Positions 23,827-45,651 of a DNA stretch of 64,000 bases are shown piece by piece (the stretch's first letter is position 1; each line of letters begins with the position of its first letter). Position numbers and translations under genes: made by a program. Under the pieces are notes generated by a model. It was not told where the DNA came from. It did not search any database and saw nothing but the letters and a program-made list of their open reading frames with translations. The DNA is from Bolinopsis microptera (taxonomy: Eukaryota): contig NC_087080.1 in assembly GCF_026151205.1 (NCBI RefSeq), positions 4,874,797 to 4,938,796 on the forward strand, given 5' to 3'.

Positions 23827-24016
23827 GTTAAATTCATCGTGTCCACCAACCCAACGCTCACCAAGGATACGTACCGTGGCAGGGCTGCCAAGAAACTTGG
23901 AATACCTATTGTAGATATTTATTACTTAAAAGAGTGCATCATTGCGAACTCTTTACTAGAATTGGATAAATCTTTGGTCTTGAGTGATACTGAAAAATTA
24001 CAGTCTGGAAGAATAG
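23827..24016 (+). CDS. PARP4: PARP4-like exon 2 (second half of BRCT domain)
   Basis: VKFIVSTNPTLTKDTYRGRAAKKLGIPIVDIYYLKECIIANSLLELDKS has the BRCT signature and aligns with human ..THIILDNADVL..VHIANPDFIWKSIREKRLLDVKNY. Acceptor tcgtag|, donor ag|gtaaag. Phases consistent with exon 1. Confidence 0.6.
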
Positions 24017-24165
24017 GTAAAGATTCATAATTTATTTTTCAGACAGTATTATTTTGGGCCGAAACGAATTTAGGGACAGTTTTTTGCTGATAAATGATAC
24101 GCATAACTCGGTAAGTTTAAATCTGTGGTTACAAATGAATCTTGTTAAAATATCTAAATGTTCAG

Positions 24166-24229
24166 ATTTACCAGATCAGGGTGATTCAGCTGAACTCGAG
24201 TCAGACTATAGAAAAATCCCAGATTTCCA
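24166..24229 (+). CDS. PARP4: PARP4-like exon 3
   Basis: DLPDQGDSAELESDYRKIPDFQ (compare human ..VEIPHLPQDFEV). Phase-consistent splice sites (ttcag| and cca|gtgagt). Confidence 0.45.
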
Positions 24230-24376
24230 GTGAGTAAATTTCACGGGACCAGTTGTCATGGGTTGATTTTCAGTTGTTAAGTTTTACCGAAGTATAGGAT
24301 GAGAAGTGAATGAGAATTATTGAATTACTTCATCTATATTTCTAGTCATCTTTGCTGATCTTAGTATCCATTTTAG

Positions 24377-24452
24377 GGATCTGGCAACAAAAGGGAAAGA
24401 AGACGTCAAAATTGACCGCAGCAAGTTCCGCTGTGTCAAATACTCCACTACT
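24377..24452 (+). CDS. PARP4: PARP4-like exon 4
   Basis: QDLATKGKEDVKIDRSKFRCVKYSTT, phase-consistent. The donor act|gtgagt is immediately followed by a 13-bp minisatellite. Confidence 0.4.
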
Positions 24453-24550
24453 GTGAGTTAGTAACTCTAGTTAGTAACTCTAGTTAGTAACTCTAGTTAG
24501 TAACTCTAGTTAGTAACTCTAGTAAGTAACTCTAGTTAGTAACTCTAGTG
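24453..24550. repeat. (TAGTTAGTAACTC)n 13-bp minisatellite, about 7 copies
   Basis: Begins at the splice donor of exon 4 (gtgagttagtaactctagttagtaactc...). Confidence 0.9.
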
Positions 24551-24701
24551 CAGTTACCACTCTTATCTCATTTCACAATCCTGTTAACTTAGACTATTGC
24601 TTTACTAAAGGATATTTGAGATGCTTTGAAGTGTTTCACTAATCATGATAATGATAATGTGAGAAAATAGGTCTGTAGATTACGTAAATCCAATGTTTCA
24701 G

Positions 24702-24779
24702 GGATGCACAGAACTTTGGATGAATGAAGGAACTCCTCCTGAGGAGTACATAGTATTGAAATGGGTTACTCTTCCTAAG
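24702..24779 (+). CDS. PARP4: PARP4-like exon 5
   Basis: GCTELWMNEGTPPEEYIVLKWVTLPK with acceptor tttcag| and donor aag|gtatta. Downstream exons at 24913-25038, 25690-25855 and 25936-26035 are plausible (helical-domain-like LKTGASEAEIKEL) but not assigned with confidence. Confidence 0.35.
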
Positions 24780-25321
24780 GTATTATATTTAGGTTAGCTG
24801 TTCATTTTGTTCATTTAGAGAAAACTACTATCGTTCTATTTTGGTTTTTTTTTTTTTTTAAATCACAGAGTTGAATGATAAAGAGATCAAAGTAAGTTAT
24901 TTCCAGATTGATAACAATTCAGGCAATGAATCACAACAAAGGATGGATATTCTCAAGTTTCCAAGATGCTTTGTTCATGTACTGCTTCATTACTCCACAT
25001 GCAGATGTCACGAATACACTCAGCCACCCAAATATGAAGGTTCGTATGACGAAATGGACAATGTGATAAAAATACACTATAACTACGATTTACCGTGGAG
25101 TTTGGGCGAAAGGAAATAGCCACGGGAAATTGAGATTCGCAGTAAATCTGAGTTTTACTGTACTATCTTATCTATAAACTTGTTCAACTTAGTTTGACAT
25201 TGTTTAAATTTTACTAAAAGTTACACAACTGTATGTAGGTTAACCAAGATACAAAGATGCCAGGAAATTCAGACAAAATCTTACATTATTACTGGAGAAA
25301 ACTATTGGAAGTTTTTAAACA

Positions 25322-25490
25322 GTTGGAGAATTGGAAAGTATCCGTCAGTAACATCCATAGGTAACTATTTACAAGTAATTATCAGGAAAGTATCCGTCAT
25401 TCATAGGTAATTATTTATAAGTAATTATCAGGAAAGTATCCGTCATTCATAGGTAACTATTTACAAGCAATTATCAGGAAAGAGTTCAAC
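25322..25490. repeat. About 50-bp tandem repeat, about 3.5 copies
   Basis: ggaaagtatccgtcattcataggtaattatttataagtaattatcag units. Confidence 0.85.
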
Positions 25491-25547
25491 TTTTTCCAAT
25501 TAGTTTATTGTACCCACGAAAACATTCTCTTTCACATAATATTACGT

Positions 25548-25680
25548 AATCACTGAGGGGGTTTTAAATGATTACGCTAGTGGTATTTTTAACACGATAG
25601 TTAAAACTGATTACGGAGGGGGTGGGTCCGGGGGTTAAAAATTGTCCAAAAAGTGATCAGGTAATATGTGAATGATCCCC
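25548..25680. mobile_element. Fragment of the ACGTAAT-TIR MITE family (truncated copy)
   Basis: cactgagggggttttaaatgattacgctagtg...gattacggaggggg...aatatgtgaatgatcccc is homologous to the complete copies at 36651-36832 and 39826-39980. Confidence 0.5.
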
Positions 25681-26130
25681 TAACTTCAGGGACCTATCAA
25701 TAATGCATGATATAGCCCACTTGCTCAAAACCGGAGCCAGTGAAGCCGAGATAAAGGAACTTGGGGACCATTTATCGGAGGGCTGGGAACACTGCACCCC
25801 TCCAAATCTACGTGCTGTCTACTCTTCTATTTTCATATCCCAGGTTTGCTGAATTTCATATTAAAAGTTCATGTCTAGGTGCTAACATTAAATAGGTTAC
25901 AGATTATTGTAACGCAATATTTTAGTTTATTTTCAGGTATGTAAACAGTTCGAGGTGTTGAAAGTTAGTTTAGAAATAAGACTACTTGTCATTGAATGGA
26001 AACTTTGTATTGATACTATTAAAATGATACAAGAAGTAGTAATGTCTAAGCAATCACCTATATCCAATAATTTGAACTTAATCTGTTGGGTTAGATTCCT
26101 CTAGCATGGATTTTCTGGTGTTTTAATAGA

Positions 26131-26867
26131 TTTAATTTCCGAACTGCTGGATACGATCAATCTGGAAATCTGAATAGTTTCTCTCCGGAGTGAATATCCA
26201 TATGTCGTTTGAGGTGTGCTTTCCGAACTGCTGCGTACGAACAATCTGGACATTTAAATTGTTTCTCTCCGGAGTGAGTATTCATTATATGTGCTTGGAG
26301 GTGTGATTTCAGAGCTCCTGCATACGAACAATCTGAACATCTAAATGGTTTCTCTCCGGAGTGAGTCTTCATATGTATTCTGAGGTATTATTTCTGAGCT
26401 GTTGCATACGAACAATCTGAACATTTAAAAGGTTTTTCTCCGGAGTGAGTCTTCATATGTATTCTGAGGTGTGATTTCAGAGCTGCTGCATACGAACAAT
26501 CTGAACATTTAAAAGGTTTCTCTCCGGAGTGAGTCGTCATATGTACTCTGAGGTGTGATTTCAGAGCTCCTGCATACGAACAATCTGAACATTTAAAAGG
26601 TTTCTCTTTGGAGTGAGTCTTCATATGTACTCTGAGGTGTGATTTCAGAGCTGCTGCATACGAACAATCTGAACATTTAAATGGTTTTTCTCCGGAGTGA
26701 GTCTTCATATGTACTGTGATGTGTGATTTCCGAACTGCTGCATACGAACATTCTGAACATTTAAAAGGTTTCTCTCCAGAGTGAGTCTTCATATGTACTC
26801 TGAGGTGTGATTTCAGAGCTGCTGCATACGAACAATCTGAACATTTAAATGGTTTCTCTCCGGAGTG
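26131..26867 (-). pseudogene. Partial tandem duplicate of the C2H2 zinc-finger array (about 9 fingers, internal frameshift, no N-terminal domain)
   Basis: 84-bp DNA periodicity. 26185-26340 is nearly identical to 28305-28460. The two track ORFs (26157-26372, 26388-27107) are in different frames. Array begins at the same finger position (atttccgaactg) as gene A's 3' end. Confidence 0.55.
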
Positions 26868-27228
26868 TGTCAACAGATGATTTGATTGATTTGAAACTTT
26901 TACAAAATAGCAAGTATACAAATGTACAGCAATTCGAACAAACATATAAAATGGGCCGAAATGTATAAATGCTAAAAAGCGTGGGTCAGTGAAACAAGTA
27001 CAGAGGACAACTTTCAGAACAGGAGTTTTTTGGCCGCCCAAAGTCTCAATAACATCACCTCCACCTAGTAATAAAATTATGAAACGTGAAAAGTGTGAAA
27101 CAATCAAATAATAATGTATTTATATAATATAATTGTCTCTCAAATACAGATAACGTCCGTAAACTCTTAAAATACTCCTACAAGTACATATTATACTGAT
27201 CGGTGTCCGAGAAACATGAATTACGCCA

Positions 27229-28149
27229 TCATGGTGCCTTCTTAACCCGGCTACAGACCTTCCCGTTACGGATGTAGTGGTCGAGATGAGTCTGTTCAGC
27301 CTTCTTCTTCTTCAGGTCAGTTACCACGTTCTTCCTTGCTGCACGCTCTTCACTGGATCTATCAGGACAGATCCATACATCTTTGTGTGCATCAGCCATC
27401 CTCAGTCTCCCTGTTTTCATCAGAATCTGATGAACTGCTGTTGAGCTAGGGACGGTGATCTTGACTGGTCGGATAGCCGTGATACCTGGCCTCTTCCAGC
27501 CGACTCTAGTCGCTTCAAAATGAGGTCTCTCCCCGATCTCCTCCAATACTGCGGTTACCAGAGCTGGAAGCTGTTCTCCATCCTCTTCTTTCAGTCCAAA
27601 CACTATCAGATTCTTGCTCCTGTCCTCCTCTGCAGCCACACTCTTTATTACATTCTTCAGAATTTTACTGTTGCAGACCGCGCCATTTGTGCTGTTCTTT
27701 TGTACAGCGGCACTGTAGCTCTTAATCCCTGTCTCCACCGTTGTTTGTACTGTCTCTTCAACTGACGTCTTAAACAACTGTAGTTGTTCGTCCTTCTGCA
27801 CTAGCAACTGGTCCTGCAACCTGACCATCTTTTCCTTGTCTGCTAGTGCTTCCGTCTTGAGGCACTCAACGATTTCCATCATAGCGCTCATCTGACTACT
27901 CTGCCGTCGTACGAGGTCTGCTGCTTGCATAACCCATTCTGCCATATACCTTTTATAGATAGACGGAGACATGAGTATTTCTTGGTCCATATCTCCACGA
28001 ATTTCGAAGTTTTCTACTTTCAGTTCTCTTGCCATCGAAGTGAACCATCTATCAGCACATCCCTCTACATCTTCCTTTTCTTCATAGTTGAAATCCTTGA
28101 GTTTCTTCTGAGATCGGGTCAAATGTAAATCATCCTCCGTGGTGTACAT
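27229..28149 (-). CDS. L1-type ORF1p-like protein (coiled coil + RRM-like + CTD; Transposase_22-like), no RT downstream
   Basis: MYTTEDDL... coiled-coil region, then NLIVFGLKEEDGE...RPVKITVPSSTAVHQILMKTGRLR...DVWICPDRSSEERAARKNVVTDLKKK resembles the L1 ORF1p RRM/CTD (NLRIIGVPE...RHIIVKFS..ERIL...IRLSADFSAETLQARRE). Real Met at 28149; the upstream part of the track ORF reads through ZF DNA. Confidence 0.55.
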   Translation of the reverse strand: MYTTEDDLHLTRSQKKLKDFNYEEKEDVEGCADRWFTSMARELKVENFEIRGDMDQEILMSPSIYKRYMAEWVMQAADLVRRQSSQMSAMMEIVECLKTEALADKEKMVRLQDQLLVQKDEQLQLFKTSVEETVQTTVETGIKSYSAAVQKNSTNGAVCNSKILKNVIKSVAAEEDRSKNLIVFGLKEEDGEQLPALVTAVLEEIGERPHFEATRVGWKRPGITAIRPVKITVPSSTAVHQILMKTGRLRMADAHKDVWICPDRSSEERAARKNVVTDLKKKKAEQTHLDHYIRNGKVCSRVKKAP

Positions 28150-28222
28150 TGTATAGTAATGTACAAGTATACACACGCAAAGGCTTACTACGCGGTAGCA
28201 GCAAACTGAATTTATCGCAAAG

Positions 28223-29479
28223 TTACAAAAGATGATCTCGAAGACTTGATTTCCGAACTGCTGCATACGAACAATCTGAACATTTAAAAGGTTTCTCTTC
28301 GGAGTGAATATCCATATGTCTTTTGAGGTGTGCTTTCCGAACTGCTGCATACGAACAATCTGGACATTTAAATGGTTTCTCTCCGGAGTGAGTATTCATT
28401 ATATGTGCTTGGAGGTGTGATTTCAGAGCTCCTGCATACGAACAATCTGAACATTTAAAAGGTTTTTCTCCGGAGTGAGTCTTCATATGTATTCTGAGGT
28501 GTGATTTCAGAGCTGCTGCATACGAACAATCTGAACATTTAAAAGGTTTCTCTTCGGAGTGAGTCGTCATATGTACTCTGAGGTGTGAGTTCAGAGCTCC
28601 TGCATACGAACAATCTGAACATTTAAAAGGTTTCTCTTTTGAGTGAGTCTTCATATGTACTGTGATGTGTGATTTCCGAACTGATGCATACGAACAATAT
28701 AGACATGTGAATGGTTTTTCTCCGGAGTGAGTCTTCATATGTACTGTGATGTGTGATTTCCGAACTGCTGCATACGAACATTCTGAACATTTAAAAGGTT
28801 TCTCTTTGGAGTGAGTCTTCATATGTACTGTGATGTGTGATTTCCGAACTGATGCATACGAACAATATAGACATGTGAATGATTTTACCCCAGTTTGAGT
28901 TGTTAAGGGATATTGAAGAGTTGTTTTTCGTGCACTTACATTTGAAGTTGAACAATCAGGAAATTTTAACAGTTTTTCACTAGCAAGAATATTTTCTTGA
29001 GGATTGGGATTCTCCTGAGACATGGTAGAATTGTCCGATATATTACTGATCACTGAAGACCCTGATCCTTTGCTACTATTATCATTCTGAAATTCATCAC
29101 ATCTTGATCTTTTTTGTTTGCCAGAATTATTAACATGATCATTGATATGCTCAATAAAACTGTCCTCCTCTAGAAACTTTTCCCCACAAACTGAGCAGAG
29201 GAAGCCTCCAGCTTCTCCAGTAAATTCGCCCGGCTCCGTTTTAACTTCTGATTTAAGAACATCACATTTGTTTTGAACACAACAACCATCTTGTTCTGTA
29301 ACAGAACCGCTTTCATGAACAGAACCTCTAGTAGATTCACGTAGTAAACTGTTCTTCTCATCTTGTACTTGCAGGTCAGGCTTATAATGACGTTCCCTGA
29401 TATGTTCAAGGAAATACTTTTTGCTTCTCAAATCCTCTTCTTCTGTCTTCACTACTCTTTTTATGTGAGAACATGACAT
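28223..29479 (-). CDS. C2H2 zinc-finger protein (about 170-aa non-finger N-terminus, then about 9 tandem C-x2-C-x12-H-x3-H fingers with SGEKPF linkers); nested antisense in a PARP4-like intron
   Basis: 418-aa ORF. Fingers FKCSDCSYAAALKSHLRVHMKTHSGEKP repeated with 28-aa (84-bp) period. N-terminal region contains one finger-like CSVCGEKF...H..H. Confidence 0.7.
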   Translation of the reverse strand: MSCSHIKRVVKTEEEDLRSKKYFLEHIRERHYKPDLQVQDEKNSLLRESTRGSVHESGSVTEQDGCCVQNKCDVLKSEVKTEPGEFTGEAGGFLCSVCGEKFLEEDSFIEHINDHVNNSGKQKRSRCDEFQNDNSSKGSGSSVISNISDNSTMSQENPNPQENILASEKLLKFPDCSTSNVSARKTTLQYPLTTQTGVKSFTCLYCSYASVRKSHITVHMKTHSKEKPFKCSECSYAAVRKSHITVHMKTHSGEKPFTCLYCSYASVRKSHITVHMKTHSKEKPFKCSDCSYAGALNSHLRVHMTTHSEEKPFKCSDCSYAAALKSHLRIHMKTHSGEKPFKCSDCSYAGALKSHLQAHIMNTHSGEKPFKCPDCSYAAVRKAHLKRHMDIHSEEKPFKCSDCSYAAVRKSSLRDHLL

Positions 29480-30289
29480 CTGAAGAGTATTCTGGATAAA
29501 TTAATAAATACATTCAGGGGGAATTGGAAATCAATAATATTGCACAAGATGAGGAGTGCTGAGTATCAATCATAATTTTAGTATTACTAGAGTAACAGTT
29601 AAAACGGTTAAACATGCATCAGATACATTTGTAAAATTTCAAGTGACAGTAGAACTTAATATATATTAGCTAAAACGGTAAACGCACTGCCAAAACCCCC
29701 ATCTGTCGCAATAGAGTTTGTGTCGCACTACAGTCCAGGTAGCGCACTGAAGTGCGACAGTGTCGATTTTGGAGGATTGTTGCACTATAGTACGTGCTAA
29801 AACAAAAATAAGAAACGTTATCAGTACGAGGGCGAGAATTGAGAACGCAAGCAAGCCTTATTAACGTATCGAAATGTAAGGTTGTGCTCTAATTCAACTT
29901 CCTATTAGGGTCTAAACAGACGTGAAACTCTCTCACGAAACGCGTACAGTAAAACCCCAATTTACCGCGAAGTTTGGGGAAACCAGTCCCCTAACTCTTA
30001 CCGTTTTCTTGATTATTATCAATTTTCTTAATTTGAAACCACTTAAAAGTGGGTTGGATATTACACGCGAACAAACATCGCTCTACAATTTGAATAATAT
30101 AAAGTAGATTTTTGATGTTTCCAGAAAGATCCGCATTTTGCATCACAGTATAATATTGTTACTAAACCCTTAACTTTGCAGCTCTGTCTGGACATTTTAG
30201 CTGTGGCGCCTCAACCAAGAAAACTAAACTCCATACAAGAAGTTTACGCGATATTGGACTTTTCATTCAGTGGTCCCGTCACAGAATCG

Positions 30290-30600
30290 TCGATACGTAA
30301 GTTACAGTGTTACAGTGTTGCAGTGTTACAGTGTTACAGTGTCACAGTGCTACAGTGTTGCAGTGTTACAGTTTTGCAGTGTTACAGTGTTGCAGTGTTA
30401 CAGTGTTACAGTGTTACAGTGTTACAGTGTTATAGTGTTATAGTGTTATAGTGTTATAGTGTTATAGTGTTACAGTGTTACAGTGTTACATTGTTAAATT
30501 GTTACAGTGTTACAGTGTTACAGTGTTACAGTGTTACAGTGTTACAGTGTTACAGTGTTACAGTGTTACAGTGTTACAGTGTTACAGTATCTTAACAACT
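30290..30600. repeat. 8-bp minisatellite (TGTTACAG)n with variants, about 38 copies
   Basis: gttacagtgttacagtgttgcagtgttatag..., produces artefactual ORFs 30176 and 30475. Confidence 0.95.
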
Positions 30601-31149
30601 AAGATCACCATATTCCACAGCTCTGACTCACAAGAAAGCCCTATCCTGCCCTCTGGAACACCCAATATCTGCCCAACTGTTTGCCAGTAACTCTAACGGA
30701 GGAAGTGGAAAGTGCAAGATGCTATATCATGTGACATCAGAAAGGAATGTGATCAGTATTCTATCAAGAGGCTTCTATTTACCCACCCTGGTTTGGAAAT
30801 AAGTTTTGTACATTTTTATCGAGAGTAAAAATGAATCACCTCCACACTATTAGCCAAGTCTATTATAAACCAATCGAACTTTACTTTGGATATAATATCA
30901 TGGGTAAATCAGTCGGGAAAATATCAGTTTTTAAGATTGGTAGAGTATAAGATTCTCTCATTCACATTGTGTAATGTGTATGTATGTAACATTCATGATA
31001 AGAGATAATCATCACCCGTTATGTAACACTTATGATAAGAGATAATGATGATCAGTATTACTTACCACAGATAGAGAGTGAGATGGGTGTAGAGAGAAGA
31101 GACTCTGGTAACCTTGGTAACGGGGTCTACTTCAGCTCTTCTTTGGAGT

Positions 31150-31211
31150 GAGTTTCAAAAGGGGGGGGGGGGGGGGGGGGGGGGCGCCAACAGGCAACGT
31201 TACGCCACTGT
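31150..31211. repeat. Poly-G (about 26 G) abutting a solo Tc1-like MITE terminus
   Basis: G26 then cgccaacaggcaacgttacgccactg, matching the 7617-7645 MITE end. Confidence 0.7.
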
Positions 31212-31405
31212 TTCATTCTCCTTTTTAAATACTTTCCATTAAGATAACTCTTGATTACTTTTTACTTATGATTATTGATAATTTGTGCTCATGATCATAA
31301 CTTGTTAACTTATATTAGTTTAGGAGACGCATCAATACAAATTTAGCAGCAGTTAAAAATTGATATTTCTTGTTCTTTTTAGTAATCAACTCTGTTATCA
31401 TTCAG

Positions 31406-31554
31406 AGACTGTGCTAAATACCTAAACAAAGAAAACAACGCTATCTTTAAATGTAAAGTGTGCGTTGGAGAAGTATTTGAGACGACAGTATCTATGCGTG
31501 ATGTAATACGGGCCCCGCCAAGATATGATTCCATTCTTGGAGTGCCGAAATCTG
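31406..31554 (+). CDS. PARP4: PARP4-like exon, PARP catalytic domain C-terminal part
   Basis: ..CAKYLNKENNAIFKCKVCVGEVFETTVSMRDVIRAPPRYDSILGVPKS aligns with human PARP4 ..SIKYSHPGETDGTRLLLICDVALGKCMDLHEKDFSLTEAPPGYDSVHGVSQT. Acceptor cattcag(ag)|, donor g|gtagtt. Confidence 0.5.
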
Positions 31555-31762
31555 GTAGTTATTATTTCAACAAAGTTTAATGTTTTCAAAGTTAGATATC
31601 TGAGATATCTGCTTTGAGTGTTGAATAAGTAATGAGCGTACTACTATATTGCGAATTTGATGTGGTTAAACAATTTCTGCTGCTGCACAACGTACAAAAC
31701 TCCAATTATTTTCAGGACAGCACAAAAATGTGTAGTATTCTAATTTAACTTTAATATCGCAG

Positions 31763-31923
31763 GAAATCGGCCAACCTCCGCTTTCGACACGGCCGAATAT
31801 TGCATTTTTGACATGACTGCTATTGAGATTGTAGAACTGATAGCTTGTGATATTCCTCTAAACGAATTAAACAAGAACAAAGACTTTGCTGATGAGAATA
31901 ATGTACAATCCTTCCATAACCGG
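31763..31923 (+). CDS. PARP4: PARP4-like exon, end of PARP catalytic domain (contains the catalytic-Glu region AEYCIF)
   Basis: GNRPTSAFDTAEYCIFDMTAIEIVELIACDIPLNELNKNKDFADENNVQSFHNR versus human ..SVTTDFEDDEFVVYKTNQVKMKYIIKF. Splice phases join the 31406 exon and the 32303 exon in frame. Confidence 0.5.
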
Positions 31924-32302
31924 GTCAGTTTGTTACGTTAAGTATTTATTAATTTATTGTGTTTATTTTAATAAATTTTATACGTTTTTTAAAAATGTAG
32001 ATTAAAATACTCAGTACTCACTCACAGAGTCTGATTTTTCGTTATTCAAGTATTAGTGATATATCTTTAACACCAATACCATGATGGAACTACACTGAGC
32101 ATGCTAATTGATTTAGAGCATGGTAATCGATTTATTTTATATTTCATAAATAAAATATAAAATACAATACAATAACATCATAACATCCGTTTACATTGTA
32201 CAACGATACAACCTCAGATACTACATCCGGTATACAATCTAAACAATGTTGAATGTAACTATGTAAATAAAATATTTGCCCCATTTTATTCTACAATTCC
32301 AG

Positions 32303-35300
32303 GACGCCTCTGACTTCAACATTCAAGAAATCTTTGACGGCTCCTGCGTGTCCCGTCCTAAAGTTGGTCTCCTAGTTGGTGGAAAAGAAGCCTCACTCTC
32401 CGGTTCAATCCATGTTTACAGCGAGCTGACTGATCTAGCAGCACGTGTCACAATTGTACAATCCTACGAGAGTAACGAGAAGTCGGTGAAAGAAGCAAAG
32501 TACCTGTTTCCCATCACAGATAGCTCGGCAGTGTGCGGGTTTGAAGCTTATATTGGTAATAAACATGTGGTGGGAAAGGTTAAGAGAAAGGAGGAAGCAA
32601 GGAGGGAATATAGGAACGCGGTAAAGGCAGGTCATGGAGCGTATCTGATGGAACAAGAGAAACCTGACCTGTTCTCCGTCGCGCTGGGCAATGTGCCAGC
32701 TGGTCCGGTCACTATTCACATCAAGATATTGTACGTGACTGAGCTTGTTATAGAGGATACGGAGATAGTGTTCAGTGTACCCGCTCTGACTCAAGGAGGG
32801 ACTGATAACAAGTTAACTCAGGTCACCACGGATACCACGCTGGTCACGTGTCAGGCCACACCCATCAACTTTCATGCTTCTCTTGCCATGCCTTTTGATA
32901 TTGTCAAGGTTTACTCTCCAGGACGAACTGTGCAGGTGAAGAAAACAGACACCACCTGTTCGGTAAAATGGGAAGGAGTTCTATCTGAGGAGCTTTCTCT
33001 AAGAGTCTCCCTGGCTGAGATCCATCGGCCGAGGATGTGGGTGGAACAAAACGGGAGCAGCGAGGCTGCCATGCTCACATTCTACCCGGATATTCAGTTC
33101 TCTGAGGGTGTTAAGATGATTAGTTTGGTTATTGATTGTTCTCGTAGTTTAGAGGGGTCCTGGGTTGATGTGATCAAGTTAGCGCTGTGTTTCTTGGAGC
33201 GGTTACCAGAGGGGTGTGTCTTCAACGTTTACAAGGTTGGGGCGCTTTTTGTGGAGTTATTTCCCTATCATGCTGTCTCTACCCAGCAAAATAGGGATAT
33301 TGCCAAGGAATTTATTTCTGATCTAAAACCTACCGAGTCATCTGCCAATGTGTACAAGATTCTTAGTGCATACCTTGCCATGAAACCAAAGATCCCGGGA
33401 CAGTTTATGAACAGTTTTATACTAATCAGCGATGGCTTGGTGACAAACCCAAAACTCACCCTGGAAACAGCACGGCAGTTCAACTATTCAGATAGGATAT
33501 TAGCAGCAGCTATCACCACTGGAGGAAATAAACATTTCATGCAAAACCTCGGTCAAGTCTCTGGTGGTTCATTTGAATTGTTTGATGGTAATGCCAAACG
33601 AAAGTGGCCAACCAGCATTGCTAAATTCCTGAAAATCTGTACTGAACCGGGTCTAACAAAAGTTGACTTGAGATGGAAAGTATTTGGTATGAACAGAGAT
33701 GAAATAGAGCAAGCACCAGTGTCAATATCCTCGCTTTTCAACAAAACCAGACAGACAATGTACGGCTTCGTCCCTAACTGCCGTGCTGCAACACTGCTAG
33801 CTTACATTGGGGAACAGGAGCTGGAGACTCTGGTCAGTTGTGCCGATCTAAATGTTACCAAAGGAGACACACTGCACAAACTCACTGCAAATGCCTTGAT
33901 AGAGGATTACTTCAAGGGGAATCTCAGGGAGGATCAGATGGAACACGAGGCTCACTTTAGGAAGAGAAAAGAAGCAATAACTGAACTTTCTATTTCACAT
34001 TCCATACTGTGTCCACTTACCAGCTTCATTGCTGTTGAAGAGAGAGAAGAGGGTGAGGTGAGAGAGGAAACGATTGATATTGAGGAGATACTGGCGACTT
34101 TGAGACAAGATAAACTGGCTTATATGGCTTGGGAAGACCATTCTGATGTTGGGTATCATGAGGATGATATAACGATGATTGAGACACGCGCACGTAATAA
34201 GAAAGTTATTCCGGCACTGAGTAACATCGATAAATACGGATGGGCAAGTTCGGATGTTAAATTACTTCCTTACTTGGCATTTATTGCAGCAGAGGATGGA
34301 AAACATGAGCCTATGTCTTTTCTCCTGTCCGAAACTTTATCGGATATTGCCAGATCTGTGGCTGATACAAGAGGCATCTCTCCCAGCCACATTGTTTTCC
34401 CTGTTAAGGACCAATACAAAACCCTAGCTGAGCTGAATTACCGATCACTTTCAAATATAACTTATCGTGTAAAAGATATCCCTCTCACTGTCACTATAAG
34501 ATCAGACGCTACAGAAACACCTATTATCATCGCATCAAGAGGTTCTGCTACGATCAGAGAAATAAAAGAAAAAATAAATGAGCAACGTCTAGATAACAAA
34601 ATCCCTGTAGAATATCAGCGCCTTCGCTTAACAGGGAAAGACTTGGAAGATGACAGCACTCTAGATGATTACAAAGTGACAGAAGGTTGCACCTTGTCCA
34701 TGGAGAGTAAACTAGGACCATATCGTGGGAATCCAAGTAACGCTAACTTACAAGTCAGTACATTAACTGGTACTGGAACCAAATTCCTCGTAATTGTAAA
34801 CACTGGGTTTTCAGCCTTGCATCTAAAATCAAAAATTGAGTCCATAACTGGAACCCTCGCTTCAGATCAAAGATTAATCTTTGATGGAAGGCAGCTGGAT
34901 GATAACGTACCGTTATTTCACTACGGTATCAAGGAGGGAAGTGTTATATTCCAGGTTCCAACGTTGAGGGGAGGTGGTGGCCCTGTACCATCTAAACAGC
35001 CTGTACAAGCAGGTGGTGGTGCACTTTATGTCAAAACGTTAACCGGCAAAACTGTTACATTGGACTCAGAGAGCAGTATGACGGTAGAGGAATTGAAACA
35101 ATCCATCCAGGACAAAGAAGGGATACCCCCAGATCAACAGAGACTCATCTTTGCAGGAAAACAACTTGAGGATGGGAGGACTCTATCTGATTACAACATA
35201 TCAAAGGAGAGTACCCTGCACCTGGTGTTGAGACTGAGAGGCGGGCCCGGTCCGGAACAGAGTGTACAACAAAAGAGTGTGGGATCTGCAAAATCTCTGC

Positions 35301-36401
35301 TGGTTACTGGTGATATCAGTTCTGTCGAATCAAGTGCAGAGGAAGGAGAGGAGGAGGAGGAGGAGGAGGAGGAGAAGGAGGAGGAGGAGGAAGAGGAGGA
35401 GGAGGAGGAGGAGGAGGAGAAGGAGAAGGAGAGGGAGTCTGGGACAGAGGACTATGAGTCATATCGTGAAATGCTTTGCTATGGTACAGCCTCTGGTACG
35501 TCATTTTCTGGAATCTGTGCTGGATCTGTTGATGCATATGATAACTCATCTGAAACTTATAGTGTAGAGATGAAATTTGCTCGAGAATTGTTTGATAAAA
35601 CTCCTTCCGAAGAAGAAACAGGGTATTCACTGTTTGATGATAATACCAGTTCTTCATCTAATACAGGAACTCTGCCGTTAAAAATGTATTCATGTAGTGA
35701 ATTATCTAGTGATTCATCTAATGAATCATCTAATGAATCATCTAGTGAATCATCTAGTGAATCATCTAGTGAATCATCTAGTGAATCATCTAGTGAATCA
35801 TCTAGTGAATTAGCTTCGTTGATAGAACCTGCTAAACCCTCCTACAAACCTACTTGTTTTGATGTTAAACCTGTCAGTCTTGGTGCAGCTCCAGTGTACA
35901 GGACTGGAGGAGGAGGGGGAAGAGTGAGAGGAGGAGGAGGAGGAGGAGGGAGAGGAGGAGGAATGGGAGGAGTATCGAGTATTAAACGGTTAAGTTGTGA
36001 GATGGATGAAATCAGATGTGATTTAGTTTCGAGACCCGAATTTATGATTTCTGATCGTTTCGATGATGATGATGATGATGATGATGATGTCATGTTTAAT
36101 GATTTTTCGGAAATAAAAGCAAAGAAAAAGATGAAGAAAAAATCTCCTGAGCAGTGCTTTGATTTACTCCTCCTTGATGTCTCCCCACTTTCATTATCAA
36201 TTGAAGACAGCAGTCACGTGAGCATTCCTATAGTGCCCCGAAACTCCAGTATCCCCAACCGGAAATCACTAGACTGTATTACAACCCATGATTATCAAAC
36301 CAGCGTAAAAGTCGCTCTCTACGAAGGGGAACGGAGGAGAGTTAAGGATAATATGTATCTTGGAGAGATTGTGATATCTGACATTCCACCAGATCTGCAA
36401 G
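32303..36401 (+). CDS. PARP4: PARP4-like giant exon: VIT + vWA + 2 ubiquitin-like domains + near-canonical ubiquitin (LRLRGG) + poly-E / (SSE)n / Gly-Arg / poly-D tracts + start of HSP70 substrate-binding domain
   Basis: Continuous 1385-aa ORF. VIT: [53 protein letters not shown] (human PARP4 EAKYIFPLDDKAAVCGFEAFINGKHIVGEIKEKEEAQQEY..GHGAYLM); PRMWVEQNG. vWA: [13 protein letters not shown]. Ub: [77 protein letters not shown]70 part: [33 protein letters not shown]...[33 protein letters not shown]. Acceptor ttccag| at 32302, donor g|gtaggt at 36402. Confidence 0.85.
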
Positions 36402-36650
36402 GTAGGTTTTACCCCTGTTTATCTTTTACCTGATGAGCCATAAATCAAGCTACAAGACAGGGAATACGTTTTCGTAGAGTATCAGAAACTGATTAAGTCT
36501 AGACAATCCTATGTAATGGGTTCTTTAATATGCTTTTATATGAGCTCGTAATTTTTCCATCAACGGCTGTGCTAAAATTATTAACTTAATTAACTGAAAA
36601 TTACTATTACACATTAAGCTTCTTCATCATGATTTTTATTATTAGGGGTC

Positions 36651-36832
36651 GTTCACATATTACGTAATTTACGTACTTTTTGTACAATTTTTAACCCCCC
36701 CCCTCCCTCCCCCCTCCGTAATCAGTTTACACATAGCTACTGTGTAAAAATTACAATAATGTAATCATTTAGAAACTCCTCCTCGGTTGATTACGTAAAA
36801 TGTGAACGACCCCTTACTGAAAATGATTAGGA
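36651..36832. mobile_element. MITE (about 180 bp) with TIR GGGGTCGTTCACATATTACGTAAT, in the intron between the two HSP70-like exons
   Basis: ggggtcgttcacatattacgtaat ... attacgtaaaatgtgaacgacccc are inverted termini. Internal poly-C/G tracts. Homologous copies at 39826-39980 and 25548-25680; solo TIRs at 41385-41410 and 41553-41578. Confidence 0.6.
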
Positions 36833-36915
36833 GCAAATTCTGCAATTGAGATGACATTTACGCTTTTCTAATATTTTATACGTTTCAATTAAATTGTAAC
36901 TAAAATCAACGTTAG

Positions 36916-37118
36916 GGTCGGTCAAGATAAAAGTCACTGTGGAGATAGATGCAACTTCAATGATTCATCTTAAAGTGAAAATTGGCGATGAGGAGGAAAT
37001 GAGGTCTATGTACAATTCTGGACGGCTGAGTTCAGAACAGATAGAGAAGTCTATAAAAGACGCGAAGGATGATTTTCGTGATGGCAAACTAAACATTCCA
37101 GCTGAGATTTCCTTACCC
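36916..37118 (+). CDS. PARP4: Next exon of the same gene: remainder of HSP70 SBD-beta and start of lid
   Basis: GSVKIKVTVEIDATSMIHLKVKIGDEEEMRSMYNSGRLSSEQIEKSIKDAKDDF aligns with HSP70 [57 protein letters not shown]. Phase 1 from the big exon is completed by the acceptor gttag|gg. Donor cc|gtaagt. Confidence 0.7.
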
Positions 37119-38454
37119 GTAAGTGGCAATTTGTATATTTCGTATTCAGTTATACACATATAGTACAATTTGAGTTTAAAGTTAATGCAAATATCGTCAT
37201 CTTTCAGTGCTTTCCAACACGAGGCAGAACAATGCTATATATAGCATTGTATCATCAGTAATACATTGCTAAACACCAAGCGGATGTGTTTTGGTTTATG
37301 GGACATTTGACTCAGTCGCTATTTAGATATTGTGTGTTTGTAACGCGCATAGATTGGAAGATATGTAGCATGGTACCTACAGCAGCGACAAATCATGCCA
37401 GCGATTATATTATAAATCAAAAGGCTTGCATATAATGAACATATTGACACGGGTGCAGAGTTGAGTCTGTACGGAACCTAGTAGTTTCAGATCCTTGTTT
37501 AACTTGCCGTACATCAAGGTCATCCACTACTTTAGCCCGGCGAGGCACATAACTCCCTCTACAACTCCATGACAAATGTTTCATATATACTAGCCGAGTT
37601 CACAAGATATATCCTTGTGTTTGAGAAGAGCTCGTTAGAACTGCTTCCTTTCCCTTTATATTATTTAAATTATATTGAAATATATTTAAATTATATTGAG
37701 AACGCGCGTGCCGACGTAATTAAATTTCTTGTGCGTGCATTCAGTACGTTTGTGTACATTATTCATATCAGTGTGTTTCGTCCAAAGTTAACTGGCCATA
37801 TTGCTAAGTTATAATCAGTCATACTTGGTTCAGGATTGTAACACAACTTTTAATTTCAGGCTCCGGATATCAATACTTTCCAGAACACTGCGTAAGTTAA
37901 AAGCTACTGCACAATGTACTTGTAGTAGAGTCTGTATTGATTATCTGATATGTTTTCTCCTGTGTTCTGTTATGTAAATGAGTAATAGGTTTTTTCTAGG
38001 TTTTCATTTGTTGTTACTCATTGAACCTATCTTTAATTCATAGCTTTAAAAATATCTAATTTCAGTGACAAAAAAAGGATCGCCCCTACTTTAGAGAATT
38101 TGATATCTTGTTATCGCAACGTAAGAATACAAAGGATGTTCCACAACTAAAACAACCTTGAGGAAAATGATAATATTATCAACTTGAACTTCACCTAGAT
38201 AGTTAAAATTATCAGTTTCTTTCCCATAGATAAGATGATTTAGAAAATTACTAAGATTGTGTAAAAGAGATACATTTTGTTTTAATTTGGTGGGGATTCT
38301 GGTGGGAATGTGTCAGGTGAAACATAGTAAGAGTGATTCTGGCGTTTGATTGGTCAATAGTGGAAGCAGATTAGTTTATTGCAGCCACTTTTTTAAATAT
38401 GCTTGACCTCCTAGGTCAACTAGAATGCACATAATGATGATAATTATGATATCA

Positions 38455-38775
38455 GATATACCTTATATATACTAGCAGGAACCCGTATAACCCTAAAATG
38501 GTGTCAAGACTCAAGAGGCTAAAATAATTATTACCTATTTAATTCGCGTTTTTGACACCACTTGGGGGTCCAAATTTTGGGCTCTAAAACTCCTATTCTT
38601 GGCAAATTTTTTTTTCATGCTGATTTGTAGGCCATTAAAGCATTTGACCCAGGCAAAAAAGTTTCAGTTTTATATCTTTTACGGTTTTTGCGGAAAGTCG
38701 CGTTAAAGGTGATGCCGTGGTGTCAGTAAAATGGCACGGAACCATATATATCGTCTCGCTTTATATATAGTAAGA
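38455..38775. repeat. About 320-bp interspersed repeat (SINE/MITE-like), copy 1
   Basis: atatactagcaggaacccgtataaccctaaaatggtgtcaagactcaagag...gatgccgtggtgtcagtaaaatggcac...tcgtctcgctttatatatagtaagat recurs at 59166-59450 plus 61976-62010. Confidence 0.7.
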
Positions 38776-39540
38776 TTTGATCACTGAAACTTGCACTTAC
38801 AGGGTTACGAAAGACTAGTTGCTGTTTCATCTTTCTCATGGTAAGCACTGTAAATTGTAAACGCCAATTTGCTGTTATTTTGGCCCACTAAGACAAAAGA
38901 TATTATTATCTTTTTCATATTGAGGTGAGCTCGTACCTGTTATGTGGGGTCCCAATTCCCTCATATACTGCGTTTTAAAAAAACCTTACTTACCACCAAC
39001 TATCAGTGACAGCTTTTGTGATTTAAATTTAACGTTTCAGTACTGAAGTTGATTTGAACGTTACGATGTACGAAAGCTGGGTCTCCTCTTTACGTCAGTT
39101 TCCTCAAACAATTGACCACATAATGGAATACAGATATAAGGTACCGTAAGTATTGAGAGCTTCCTCCCTATATTACATATGACATCAGGGATCATCTTTA
39201 AGGTCAACAAATACACCTCACATCCCAACCAGAATCTACGTCTATTAGCACAATAAACTCTTAGGTTTGCGTCGAAAATTCGAACGGTGAACCATCTATC
39301 CCCGATGTCATGAAGATAGTACAGAAGTTGCTGGTCACTGGTGGAATAAGAAGTCTTGGAACTGATCTGCAGACTAAAACCGCCTCCCATCTCATGGATT
39401 TGTTAACCTTGATAAGATCCATGGAAAGGACCAAGGTGAATTTTTGTTTTGTTTGGTTCTTAATTTATAGCTTTGACTTTAATTTGGGGATGATTGTTTT
39501 TCGAATGAGTATTCAGTATAAAATTAAAAATGTAAATACA

Positions 39541-39720
39541 GTATAACCCCGATTTACCGCGCCCCGATTTACCGCAAACCCCGATATTCCGCAGCCACCT
39601 CCCCCACCTAACTGTAACATGTATAATGTAAAGAAACAAAACCCCGATTTACCGCGAATGTTTCCTTTCCCCAACCTCCGCGGTAATTGAAATTCGGGGT
39701 TTTACTGCATAATACTGATT
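39541..39720. mobile_element. Palindromic MITE/SINE-like element with termini CAGTATAACCCCGATTTACCGCG
   Basis: cagtataaccccgatttaccgcg...cgcggtaattgaaattcggggttttactg. Related termini at 29940-29980, 53390-53425 and 25085-25120 (ccccgatttaccgtggagtttggg). Confidence 0.5.
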
Positions 39721-39825
39721 GTATTACAATTATTAATAAATAGTCCTGATTTTTCAGCGAAGGAATTGACATTGTAACAGTTAACATTGCACCCTCACAG
39801 AAATTTTATTCTCTCGAACGTCCCA

Positions 39826-39980
39826 AAAGTCGTTCACATATTACGTAATCAGCTGAGGGGGGGGGTTTCCGAATGATTACGCTAGTGCAATTTTGACACA
39901 ATAGCTATGTGTAAAACTGATTACGGACAGGGGGGGGGGAATGTTCTAAAAAAATGATTACGTAATATGTGAACGACCCC
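39826..39980. mobile_element. MITE, second complete copy of the ACGTAAT-TIR family
   Basis: gtcgttcacatattacgtaatcag...gattacgtaatatgtgaacgacccc. Confidence 0.6.
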
Positions 39981-41329
39981 AAAGTTCCCTATCCCCCCAC
40001 ATTTACAAAAATATTAATGGACAACATTTCAGCGTACTGAAAATCTAATGAAGTCACTATTCGAACCTAGTGATATTCTTAGAAGACTCGAGATTTCAAA
40101 TACTGTAGCGTCACTCTTTCTCACACTTTCTGCAGTGTTTGGAATTGCAACAAATGATAACACTATCAATCACGAGGTTTGTTCATTGATTACATTTTTA
40201 CTTAAGCATGTTATCAGTGTTGTTGATTGCCAAGTTTTGTGTTGAGGATTGATGAAAATACAAATTGATTAACAAACAAAACTTTATTTATTTGTTATTT
40301 ATTATTATTTATTTATTTATTAACGTGCAAAACTTGATGTAATTAGTTCATTTTTCAGATTCTGAGGAACCTCGGTGATCTCCACCTAGCGACCGAGTTA
40401 AAGATATTTTCGGAATCTCATCACGTCACCCCTCCACCTTCTGTCTGTGTTGTTTCCGATTTAGATTGATTTTTCTTGAGTATTCGGTTATTGGTATGTG
40501 TACTGAGAACATAATTTTTTAGCGGTTGCAAAATTATATTTTTTACAATTATTGTTTTTATTTACATAGCAATTGTGATTTGTATGTATATGTATTATGT
40601 TAAGTTTAATAGAGCGTGTTTGATTAATAGCGATGTTAGATTTAATTGATAAAACTCAGCCGAAGCAATGCTGCAGTTGCTTAAAATTAAATACTTTCGC
40701 TCGATATTGGTTAATTTTAAGCTAAAGATTAAAAGTCTAAATTATTATCTGAACAGTTACGTTCACACATTTGGACTTGTGTTACATACAATAAGTATAA
40801 CTTTTAGACTCTAGTGTCCAGACTAAATAAGATTTTTATCGACCTAAAATGGTTTGGGAATATTTTGAACATTTTATATATAACATGTTAATGTTATGTA
40901 TGATATTTTCTTGTCACTTAAGCTTTGACTTCGAAGTTCGACGCATCAAATACTTTATTATCTTAAATTGTATTTCAATTCTAAAACGACTCTTGATAGA
41001 TAAATTGCTCACCATACCGTACAATTGTACTACTTCAGATAAATCTTTGGAAACATGATAACATGACTGAGAAAAACATTTAAACCATGTACTATTATAA
41101 ACCTGAGTACTATTATATTCATTCGGTCCCTATTTCTCTAAAAAATGACCCAGCTGCACGGAGGGCGAAAGTTGTGGGTATCCGGCCTGGTTTATAAATG
41201 TGAACCTTGAGTACGAATATCTTGACTTCCTTTTTAAGTTAGAAACTCTACAGGAAATATGATCATAGTTTGTTACATTGTGATATTGTGGTAATTAATG
41301 AGGGCTCTGTGCTCTGACCATCAGAGATT

Positions 41330-44460: not shown

Positions 44461-44719
44461 GCGTTTGATTAAGAACAGACAAGCCAGTCTTGACCTTTAG
44501 CGAGCCTATTTTTACCATTTGTGTCATCAAAATGTGTTATTCTCCATCGGTGAAGGGGTTTACTCGATTGATACCTTTTAACCTATCTTGATCTAGTTTT
44601 ACAAAATTTGAATCCTCTTCAGCGAAAAATGAAGTCGTCTTGTACCCTTTGTCCTTAGATTTGACACTGGACATTGAACCAAAACGAATGCTCAATTTAA
44701 CTTCAGTTTGACAGGGCAG

Positions 44720-44886
44720 ATGGGTTTTCTGAAAAAGCTGAAGGAGTCCACAGCAAACAAGAGAGCTTTACTTGTCATTACCGTACTTATATTGGTGCTG
44801 GTGATAGTAGTTATTTCAGTTGTGGTTACCACTGTTGGTAAAACTAAAAGTGAACCATCCTATGGAACACCTTGGGAAAATCCCAG
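44720..44886 (+). CDS. Aminopeptidase N-like (M1 family) exon 1: cytoplasmic tail + signal-anchor TM
   Basis: MGFLKKLKESTANKRALLVITVLILVLVIVVISVVVTTVGKTKSEPSYGTPWENPR. Type II membrane topology as in APN. Donor cccag|gttatt. Confidence 0.7.
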
Positions 44887-45212
44887 GTTATTGTGACCAC
44901 ATGTTATTTAATTTTATTATTGTTGATTTATCAATTTACAAATATAGTGGCCACTCGAGCACAGATCAACTCCAATCATATTCCGAAAGGTCCCTTACCT
45001 TCATTTGGCACAATTTTGAACGAAATTTATTTCGGAGGTCCGGACTTTTTTATATTGATTTAGGTTGTAGAACATTGAATATGAAAGCCAATAAAATATT
45101 GAAAATCAGATATATACAACTGAGGACAAACCATTAACTGCAAACTAAATTGAGTATTGTTTTAAACTTCTTTCTCCAAGTCTACTAAGTAATATCACTG
45201 CAAACCTCACAG

Positions 45213-45303
45213 GTTACGGACGGACGTGAAACCTAAGCATTACAACATTACGCTCCAAATAGACGTGACACATGAGACTTTCTCGGGGAAAGAAACTATC
45301 GAG
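45213..45303 (+). CDS. Aminopeptidase N-like exon 2
   Basis: (R)LRTDVKPKHYNITLQIDVTHETFSGKETIE versus human APN [37 protein letters not shown]. Phases consistent. Confidence 0.7.
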
Positions 45304-45463
45304 GTAGAAATTGTTTTAGATTAAAAGAGCTTATCCATTCACTTTGATGCAGAATTCAAATGAATGAATGAAATTGATCCTTTCTCCCAAAGAAAGAAAG
45401 AATGTCCAGATATTTGGATTGAAGAGGAGTATTAGAGCTGACAGCTTGTAACCGCTACCTCAG

Positions 45464-45651
45464 ATAGACATCACAGCAGCCAACATCTCTACGATAGTAC
45501 TGCACGCCAATAAGATATTGATTCCTCTAGACTCCTCCTACCTGAGATTGTACTACAAGACTGTAGGTTCAGAAGATGAAAAGGAACATGATATAAAGAT
45601 TAAGCGTCATCATCCTTTTACAGAGAACAGCTATTACATCATTTATCTGGA
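45464..45651 (+). CDS. Aminopeptidase N-like exon 3
   Basis: IDITAANISTIVLHANKILIPLDSSYLRLYYKTVGSEDEKEHDIKIKRHHPFTENSYYIIYL(E). Donor ga|gtaaga chosen to keep phase with exon 4. Confidence 0.6.

Follow-up and report, generated by a model that had tools for sequence, protein, structure and literature searches.

Can a single animal gene join a vault-PARP-like scaffold, ubiquitin and that half of an Hsp70 chaperone which binds clients in one polypeptide, and if so, what might such a protein do? This question is raised by a locus of the ctenophore Bolinopsis microptera (contig NC_087080.1), in which a stretch of 64,000 nucleotides, called the window here and used for all coordinates unless another sequence is named, carries an uninterrupted open reading frame (ORF) of 1385 aa at 32276-36433 (+). 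A first reading, made from the sequence alone, had described this ORF together with its low-complexity tracts and had taken it for part of a chimeric gene. The ORF is present as described, and Pfam scores VIT, VWA_3, the ubiquitin family and the C-terminal part of HSP70 in it. As judged by sequence comparison, the ORF is shown to be exon 13 of a single, genuine PARP4-family gene that is conserved in ctenophores and under purifying selection; the fusion is real, and it is a feature of the ctenophore lineage rather than a one-off chimera.

A conserved ctenophore gene of the PARP4 family

A protein search with ORF aa 1-720, which seemed to reach only targets up to ~1.75 times as long as the query, gave as named best relatives of the VIT-vWA region only PARP4 or PARP4-like proteins. 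Two ENA proteins, P0001 and P0002, are 77 and 76% identical to the query, and each carries VIT, vWA, ubiquitin and HSP70; another ENA protein, P0004 (54% identical), carries VIT, vWA and ubiquitin, and P0112 of EukProt carries VIT, ubiquitin and HSP70. The PARP4-like proteins of molluscs, echinoderms, cnidarians and vertebrates are 34-39% identical, with E-values from 1e-117 to ~1e-93 for the matches that cover most of the query. The VIT and vWA domains had been said to align closely with human PARP4; the homology is confirmed, but at ~35% identity to vertebrate PARP4 the alignment is not a close one.

With the spliced SBD-coding fragment as sole query, the same kind of search, under the same apparent limit on length, matched just 13 short bacterial DnaK fragments. 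A search with the 1967-aa gene model given below retrieved Mnemiopsis leidyi P0134 (KAL5250110.1, "hypothetical protein ACHWQZ_G015989", 2061 aa, 60% identical), which carries BRCT, PARP, VIT, vWA, ubiquitin and HSP70 domains; UPI0004EAB135 (UniParc, 2039 aa) is an older entry of the same cluster. The combination of VIT-vWA with an Hsp70 substrate-binding domain (SBD) is therefore found in other genomes, namely in P0001, P0002 and Mnemiopsis P0134. The sequence-only reading knew of no described protein of this architecture, which is true of the literature searched but not of the databases, where the two Mnemiopsis entries already stand as hypothetical. In the literature we found nothing on PARP4 in ctenophores beyond a passing listing, on the fusion, or on natural Hsp70 SBD proteins that lack the nucleotide-binding domain (NBD), and nothing relevant on MVP in ctenophores.

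The Mnemiopsis chromosome assembly has one annotated gene of 17.8 kb, whose homologous giant exon (L004 20231-23977) encodes aa 517-1765, and a homologous single giant exon is also found in the ENA assemblies L001 (the locus of P0001) and L003. P0112 is a Pleurobrachia bachei gene model with the Hsp70 fragment; it was used only for the co-occurrence of VIT, ubiquitin and SBD, as it seems to skip vWA and to retain an intron in the SBD, and its tail after the SBD has no detectable similarity to the downstream exons of the window. Since the exon is continuous in these four further, independent assemblies or annotations (L001, L003, Mnemiopsis L004 and the P. bachei model), the fusion is not an assembly chimera. 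In a conserved block of ~140 aa in the VIT region, the window is ~88% identical to Mnemiopsis and also to the species of L001/L003; identity falls to 61% for Pleurobrachia and to 50% for the species of contig L002, which is the locus of P0004. The window, L001, L003 and Mnemiopsis agree both in where the intron inside the Hsp70 fragment lies and in its phase. The ratios of nonsynonymous to synonymous substitution rates (dN/dS; Nei-Gojobori method, L001 against L003, with an unsaturated dS of 0.3-0.45) are as follows:

VIT domain: 0.02
vWA domain: 0.12
Ubiquitin: 0.018
Hsp70 fragment: 0.10
Low-complexity linker: 0.39

A decaying pseudogene or an assembly chimera is excluded because dN/dS is 0.10 in the Hsp70 fragment, the intron within it is conserved, and the fragment is present from Pleurobrachia to Mnemiopsis.

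The gene extends over ~17 kb, 23533-40469 (+). A splice-phase dynamic programme, run on tblastx blocks colinear with the related contig L001, joined 14 exons, all in splice phase, from the ATG at 23533 to 37118, which together encode 1967 aa. The first 580 aa of this model align end to end with Mnemiopsis P0134 at 52% identity. The exons and, within exon 13, the VIT and vWA domains are listed here with the evidence for each:

23533-23658 and 23827-24016 (+): exons 1-2, start codon and BRCT (Pfam BRCT, tblastx against L001, alignment to the N-terminus of P0134)
24346-24452, 24702-24779, 24923-25039, 25239-25360, 25690-25843 and 30149 or 30182-30296 (+): exons 3-8, between BRCT and the catalytic domain (L001 blocks, phase chain)
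30621-30790, 31071-31147, 31406-31554 and 31763-31923 (+): exons 9-12, PARP catalytic domain, or ADP-ribosyltransferase (ART) domain (Pfam PARP, tblastn with mollusc PARP4-like proteins, P0134)
32303-36401 (+): exon 13, giant, 4099 nt, with VIT, vWA, two ubiquitin-like domains (Ubl1 and Ubl2), ubiquitin, a linker and the first half of the Hsp70 fragment (ORF, acceptor and donor, homologous exons)
32405-32734 (+): VIT domain in exon 13 (Pfam PF08487, ORF aa 44-153, E 2e-29)
33119-33574 (+): vWA domain in exon 13 (Pfam VWA_3, ORF aa 282-433, E 2.6e-8)
36916-37118 (+): exon 14, remaining beta-sandwich and helix A of the Hsp70 fragment (splice phase, Pfam HSP70)
38044 or 38066-38120, 39041-39140, 39265-39435, 40033-40176 and 40359-40469 (+): probable 3' exons (tblastx with L001 and L003, tblastn with the P0134 tail)

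It had been proposed that an upstream BRCT (23533-24016) and PARP fragments (31406-31923) join exon 13 in consistent phase as a single very large gene. The joins and the single gene are borne out by the phase-consistent exon chain from 23533 and by the one-gene annotation in Mnemiopsis; the PARP start is not, as the catalytic region begins at ~30621, and the gene extends further, to a stop TGA at 40467-40469.

Exon 1 has a GC donor (AAG|GCAAGT), and the BRCT domain on the spliced model (aa 3-90) is matched by Pfam BRCT (E 1.6e-5) and BRCT_2 (E 4e-5), the domain being present in Mnemiopsis P0134 as well. Exons 3-8 correspond in position to the WGR and helical domains of PARP4; the alignment with P0134 suggests that exon 8 may start at 30182 and not at 30149. 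The spliced catalytic domain scores 37.6 bits with Pfam PARP (cut-off 26.7). Its putative H-Y-E residues are the His in MLYHVTS, the Tyr in GNGVYFSS and the Glu in TAEYCIF, and the three motifs are kept in P0134 and aligned with those of mollusc PARP4-like proteins; the H-Y-E positions are thus apparently retained. TAEYCIF lies in 31763-31923, the true last catalytic exon. A PARP4 similarity at 32189-32239, in the frame of the ORF, was rejected as a spurious extension of the aligned segment: the stretch is rich in A and T, lacks an acceptor AG on its upstream side and runs into a TAA stop. Judging from its BRCT, ART, VIT and vWA domains, the encoded protein is a member of the PARP4 family.

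Exon 13 is bordered by an acceptor at 32303 (ttccag|GAC) and a phase-1 donor at 36401/36402 (CAAG|GTAGGT), and exon 14 by an acceptor at 36915/36916 (ttag|GG) and the donor CCC|GTAAGT. Further downstream, the joins from 37118 to 38044/38066 and from 38120 to 39041 are out of phase, and the counterparts of Mnemiopsis micro-exons were not placed in the window; the two joins probably reflect such micro-exons.

Two introns of the gene carry sequences of their own. A tandem repeat of ~24 nt at 30297-30600, directly after the exon 8 donor, reads QCYSVTVL in one frame; it is intronic, is not conserved in L001, and inflates an apparent ORF at 30176-30451. The intron at 25844-30148 holds a lineage-specific insertion, the homologous intron of L001 being ~150 bp. 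Within it, ORFs at 26388-29479 (-) encode a multi-C2H2 zinc-finger protein with at least eight fingers, and a 373-aa ORF overlapping them has no Pfam match; the insertion is either a nested gene or a mobile element.

Modules downstream of the vWA domain

The Hsp70 fragment begins in the last part of exon 13:

36158-36401 (+): Hsp70 interdomain linker FDLLLLDV and first part of the beta-sandwich, up to PPDLQ-G (Pfam HSP70, tblastn with HSPA8)

In the unspliced ORF, aa 1293-1376 match positions 380-463 of 599 of the Pfam HSP70 profile (E 1e-14, 53.9 bits). Splicing from 36401 to 36916 fits in phase and raises the score to 87.8 bits over profile positions 383-516 of 599, which comprise linker, beta-sandwich and helix A, in agreement with the earlier proposal that the HSP70 linker and SBD-beta continue in this exon. 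The spliced junction reads ...PPDLQ-G-SVKIKVTVEIDATS..., and the exon 14 protein reads GSVKIKVTVEIDATS...GRLSSEQIEKSIKDAKDDF...AEISLP.

No Hsp70 ATPase domain was found by tblastn with human HSPA8 over the whole window on both strands at E<=10. The sole match, of 43.5% identity, joins HSPA8 residues 386-470 to 36149-36403, so that the claimed lack of an upstream NBD holds for the whole window. The spliced fragment is 38% identical to HSPA8, and the Mnemiopsis Pfam HSP70 match starts at profile position 363. A lid past helix A is missing from both the window and Mnemiopsis, where the Pfam match ends at ~516-518 of 599, as is the EEVD tail, the protein ending in ...SDLD* in the window and in ...PEDI in Mnemiopsis.

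What is present of the Hsp70 is well preserved. DLLLLDV, RNxxIP and YEGxR are invariant in an alignment of five ctenophore sequences with human HSPA8 (A2). The closest solved structures, by phmmer against PDB, are cytosolic Hsp70s (yeast Ssa1 at E 9e-25, HSPA2, Hsc70 and HSP70-1A), while mitochondrial, endoplasmic reticulum and bacterial Hsp70s score below them; these matches begin at the linker and reach as far as the beginning of the lid. For the Mnemiopsis sequence, AlphaFold2, supplied with an alignment of 17 rows, predicts the canonical eight strands and helix A with predicted local distance difference test (pLDDT) values of 74-87, and the top Foldseek matches of this predicted fold in PDB are all Hsp70 SBDs, with a template modelling (TM) score of ~0.7 when normalised to SBD-beta constructs. 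Without an NBD, the ctenophore fragment cannot run the ATP-driven chaperone cycle alone. Judging from these comparisons, the protein carries a domain derived from Hsp70 and is itself no Hsp70 chaperone.

The ubiquitin family is matched by Pfam in three stretches of the ORF (E 3e-57), and phmmer with canonical ubiquitin places all three:

34490-34720 (+): Ubl1, divergent (ORF aa 739-815)
34745-34975 (+): Ubl2, divergent (ORF aa 824-900)
35018-35248 (+): near-canonical ubiquitin (ORF aa 915-990)

The two divergent ubiquitin-like folds of the sequence-only reading are thereby recovered, with phmmer domain E-values of 1e-8 for Ubl1 and 3.5e-9 for Ubl2, the latter ending in LRGGGG-P. Their number varies: two additional Ubls are found in the window and one in Mnemiopsis and P0004, and P0001 and P0002 have none beyond a weak beta-grasp-like segment. 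The third domain was rightly called a ubiquitin; it is near-canonical, and the count of 60 canonical residues is corrected to 61 of 76. Residues 30-76 are nearly identical to ubiquitin, and K6, K11, K27, K33, K48 and K63 are kept, K29 being replaced by Ser.

This ubiquitin ends in LRLRGG, which is immediately followed by Pro, and GG-Pro-x-Pro is found in all six distinct sequences (the window, P0001, P0002, P0004, P0112, and P0134 with its isoforms). The domain is internal, at residues ~1435-1510 of the model. It is not a conventional processed precursor of the polyubiquitin, UBA52 or RPS27A type, as its GG is joined to Pro and it is not N-terminal. Deubiquitinases reportedly cleave ubiquitin-Pro bonds poorly, according to the work of Bachmair, Johnson and Varshavsky. 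Because GG-Pro is invariant and ubiquitin-Pro is handled poorly by deubiquitinases, the ubiquitin probably stays attached, as a signal within the chain and not as a processing site. The ubiquitin-Pro-beta-galactosidase fusion is the classic uncleaved substrate and the founding one of the ubiquitin-fusion degradation pathway (PMC3791797).

Ubiquitin and the Hsp70 fragment are separated by a long linker:

35249-36157 (+): low-complexity linker with poly-Glu, Ser/Glu repeats, a Gly/Arg run and poly-Asp (ORF translation)

This linker carries two conserved short motifs, an acidic run with GYSLFDD (35606-35641) and a basic patch KKKMKKK (36122-36142). An acidic run followed by G[FY]xLF[DS], at aa 1640 of the model, is found in every ctenophore sequence compared, and also in PARP4-like proteins of a gastropod (P0063 aa 1160, EEESDEEMGFCLFD) and of teleosts (P0011 aa 1137 and P0033 aa 1130), in which it reads EEEDCGFGLFD and DDEMDDLGFGLFD. 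We take this motif to resemble the C-terminal tail of the ribosomal stalk proteins P0/P1/P2. No literature linking GFGLFD with PARP4 was found, and the motif may be an unrecognised ancestral linear motif of PARP4. The basic patch reads KKMKKK in the window, P0001, P0002 and P0112 and KKKKK in P0134, lies 5-35 residues upstream of DLLLLDV, and is kept though the low-complexity sequence around it varies. The patch is a candidate nuclear localisation signal, or else may form the basic flank of a motif bound by Hsp70.

The Hsp70 fragment is followed by a domain of ~175 aa, conserved in the ctenophore sequences of alignment A1 and predicted by AlphaFold2 to be all-helical, with nine helices, at a pLDDT of 45-55 that is too low for fold comparison. 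It matches no Pfam family, and a profile search found no sequence relative in PDB, PARP4 MINT included. Among 1.84 billion representative proteins, phmmer found as homologues only two short fragments that resemble ORFs of L001 and L003. On these searches, the C-terminal domain is specific to the ctenophore lineage.

The flanking genes are conserved as well. A viperin/RSAD2-like radical-SAM gene of five exons (19115-21184, +; NYHLTRKCNYECKFCFH) lies directly upstream, its exons being 85-87% identical to L001. The next gene downstream (44678-45949+, +) is aminopeptidase-N-like and belongs to the M1 peptidases (Pfam Peptidase_M1_N), with a predicted N-terminal hydrophobic, membrane-anchor-like segment (RLRTDVKPKHYNITL). 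The order radical-SAM gene, PARP4-ubiquitin-SBD gene and M1 peptidase gene is common to the window, L001 and Mnemiopsis. At 773-2954 stands a 2.2-kb imperfect, microsatellite-like array rich in TCC/TCCTCAG, which accounts for the GC content of 0.53 and the GC skew of -0.45 at the window start, and a 405-bp tandem repeat with at least four copies of 99% identity is found at 4284-6000+.

Possible functions and rival explanations

We infer, and consider the chances of this reading to be even, that the gene encodes a mono-ADP-ribosyltransferase of the PARP4 family into which a module that binds peptides without ATP and an uncleaved ubiquitin signal are built. The comparisons above show that the gene has acquired, downstream of vWA, a variable number of Ubls together with ubiquitin, a cytosolic-type Hsp70 fragment and a helical C-terminal domain. 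The uncleaved ubiquitin could offer ubiquitin receptors, p97 or the proteasome a point of attachment, or could itself take up K48/K63 chains. The Hsp70 fragment would act in the manner of a holdase, binding hydrophobic peptide segments in extended form without ATP, in the way seen in solved structures of isolated SBDs, and would bring clients or partners beside the ADP-ribosyltransferase and the ubiquitin. The overall logic would be like that of the shuttles which combine a Ubl with client binding (ubiquilin, BAG6), or of Hsp70 with CHIP or BAG1, placed here in a single polypeptide. The chaperone/ubiquitin-linked adaptor role named in the sequence-only reading would be a proposal of the same kind.

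Hsp70-binding motifs consist of a Leu-rich core with basic flanks. The DLLLLD linker with its preceding KKMKKK patch looks like such an Hsp70 ligand, and might fill the cleft in cis or in trans, giving autoinhibition or head-to-tail self-association until clients displace it. Engagement of the linker by an SBD in trans has been documented for BiP and for human Hsp70 oligomers (PMC4608358, PMC3696110).

A bolder version, which we regard as improbable, may be put as "recognise, mark, deliver": the NBD-less Hsp70 domain would capture unfolded, viral or foreign polypeptides without ATP, the ART domain would mono-ADP-ribosylate them, and the ubiquitin, not being removable, would route the complex to p97 or the proteasome or nucleate chains. 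If true, the protein would be a previously unknown effector of quality control or innate immunity coupled to ADP-ribosylation, and an Hsp70 SBD could be selected for function without its ATPase. The viperin-like neighbour, present in all three loci whose upstream side is visible (the window, L001 and Mnemiopsis), fits such a role, and its adjacency possibly means co-regulation, e.g., in antiviral responses.

Several observations count against the reading that we prefer. The Pfam PARP match is limited to profile positions 36-149 of 199, and PARP activity is deduced only from the retained motifs. Cleavage after the ubiquitin GG may occur, the uncleaved state being read from the junction residues. 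The cleft differs from that of canonical Hsp70 in the A2 alignment, compared by eye: in DnaK numbering, F426 is replaced by Cys, and the arch residues M404/A429 by Ser/Thr or Ala, so that peptide binding or its specificity may have changed or disappeared. As helix B and the remaining lid are missing, binding would exchange fast, and the SBD may instead be a protein-protein interface for a fixed partner. Finally, the relative P0004 (L002, ENA ERZ25073769 ctg126191, 8406-12793) has PARP exons, VIT, vWA, one Ubl and ubiquitin-Pro, and neither an SBD nor the C-terminal domain is detectable within 10 kb downstream in L002; the functions of ubiquitin and SBD are therefore separable. L002 may represent an earlier-branching lineage, or a paralogue that predates the SBD or has lost it. 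A minus-strand ABC2-type gene begins ~6 kb away in that contig.

Other explanations differ from ours in what they make of these modules. The ubiquitin might be a processing site, at which a deubiquitinase cuts after LRLRGG as in UBA52, RPS27A and polyubiquitin; the gene would then yield a PARP4-VIT-vWA-Ubl-ubiquitin protein with a free GG and a protein of linker, SBD and C-terminal domain, the fusion being a device for co-expression. Every natural ubiquitin gene known to us is a processed fusion, LRLRGG is intact in a domain as constrained as its dN/dS of 0.018 and its 61/76 identity indicate, and the L002 relative keeps the ubiquitin without a detectable SBD, as separable halves would allow. 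We nevertheless think cleavage unlikely, as Pro and then x-P follow the GG in 6/6 distinct sequences, the window Ubl2 likewise ends in LRGGGG-P, Pro is the one P1' residue known to us to block most deubiquitinases, and processed precursors offer no parallel for an internal ubiquitin that lies ~1500 aa away from the N-terminus.

It is also conceivable, if distinctly unlikely in our estimate, that the protein is a plain ctenophore vault PARP, whose helical C-terminal domain would be a diverged MINT domain docking inside vaults, with ubiquitin and SBD as lumenal inserts for cargo capture or regulation in the linker between vWA and MINT. This would be compatible with our reading of the SBD itself, and would locate it in the vault. 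The order BRCT-ART-VIT-vWA-long linker-helical C-terminus does parallel human PARP4, the nine predicted helices would suit such a domain, and the acidic GFGLFD-like motif of the linker is common to fish and mollusc PARP4-like proteins; against these likenesses, the C-terminal profile matches no PARP4 MINT chain in PDB and no Pfam family, homologues outside ctenophore fragments are absent from the 1.84 billion representatives, and the pLDDT is too low for the fold to be compared. Scarcely credible, in our view, is an artefact or relic, i.e., a chimera of assembly or annotation, or the in-frame remnant of an inserted Hsp70 (retro)copy. Low-complexity tracts prone to misassembly flank the fragment, and half of the parent Hsp70 is missing, but the same continuous exon recurs outside the window in two ENA assemblies, in the chromosome assembly of Mnemiopsis and in the P. 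bachei model, the intron in the SBD is conserved in position and phase, dN/dS in the fragment is well below the 0.39 of the adjacent linker, and the spliced fragment makes a complete beta-sandwich.

The gene is of interest in more than one respect. To our knowledge, Hsp70 SBDs have almost always been studied, and found, coupled to their ATPase. In this gene an Hsp70 SBD is under purifying selection with no ATPase in cis across lineages as divergent as Mnemiopsis and Pleurobrachia, set within an ADP-ribosyltransferase and beside a ubiquitin that seems made to stay on, which offers a test case for what an isolated SBD with its linker does in vivo, whether it acts as a holdase, associates with itself or docks a partner. 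The gene might also link ADP-ribosylation directly with ubiquitin signalling and with client recognition of the chaperone type. It may throw light on PARP4, whose biology and long C-terminal linker are poorly understood, and it shows cleanly how domains have accreted in an animal phylum that branched off early.

Comparison with known systems

The closest known system is PARP4, or vault PARP, with which the ctenophore protein shares the identical order of BRCT, ART (with the H-Y-E positions), VIT and vWA, a long disordered linker after vWA with an acidic GFGLFD-like motif (as in fish and gastropod PARP4-like proteins), and a helical extreme C-terminus. It differs by the insertion, after vWA, of ubiquitin, Ubl domains and a substrate-binding piece of Hsp70, and by a C-terminal domain without detectable similarity to MINT, which in human PARP4 consists of several helices and occupies residues 1562-1724 at the C-terminus (PMC12280208). 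The PARP4-like protein P0063 of the gastropod Batillaria attramentaria (BaRGS_008286) carries, after BRCT-PARP-VIT-vWA, a domain of the ubiquitin family and an acidic MGFCLFD motif, which indicates that ubiquitin-family domains after vWA are not unique to ctenophores. Unlike the ctenophore ubiquitin, its Ubl ends in ...LRAEEE without GG, and its gene model lacks the Hsp70 fragment.

With cytosolic Hsp70s of the Hsc70/Ssa type the fragment shares the DLLLLDV linker, a complete eight-stranded SBD-beta and helix A, at ~38-44% identity to HSPA8, whereas the NBD, the lid past helix A and EEVD are missing and several cleft residues are changed. Ubiquilins, BAG6, BAG1 and CHIP are similar by functional analogy only, in that they combine a ubiquitin-fold signal with a module that holds clients or docks Hsp70. 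They are unrelated in sequence and recruit Hsp70 or use Sti1-like or BAG domains, whereas in the ctenophore protein the candidate client-binding domain is the Hsp70 SBD itself and an ADP-ribosyltransferase is in the same chain. The ubiquitin-Pro junction reminds us of the substrates of the ubiquitin-fusion degradation pathway (ubiquitin-Pro-beta-galactosidase and UBB+1), in which ubiquitin is likewise peptide-linked to the downstream sequence by a deubiquitinase-resistant junction; those substrates are engineered or mutant and have ubiquitin at the N-terminus, whereas the ctenophore junction is natural, internal and conserved.

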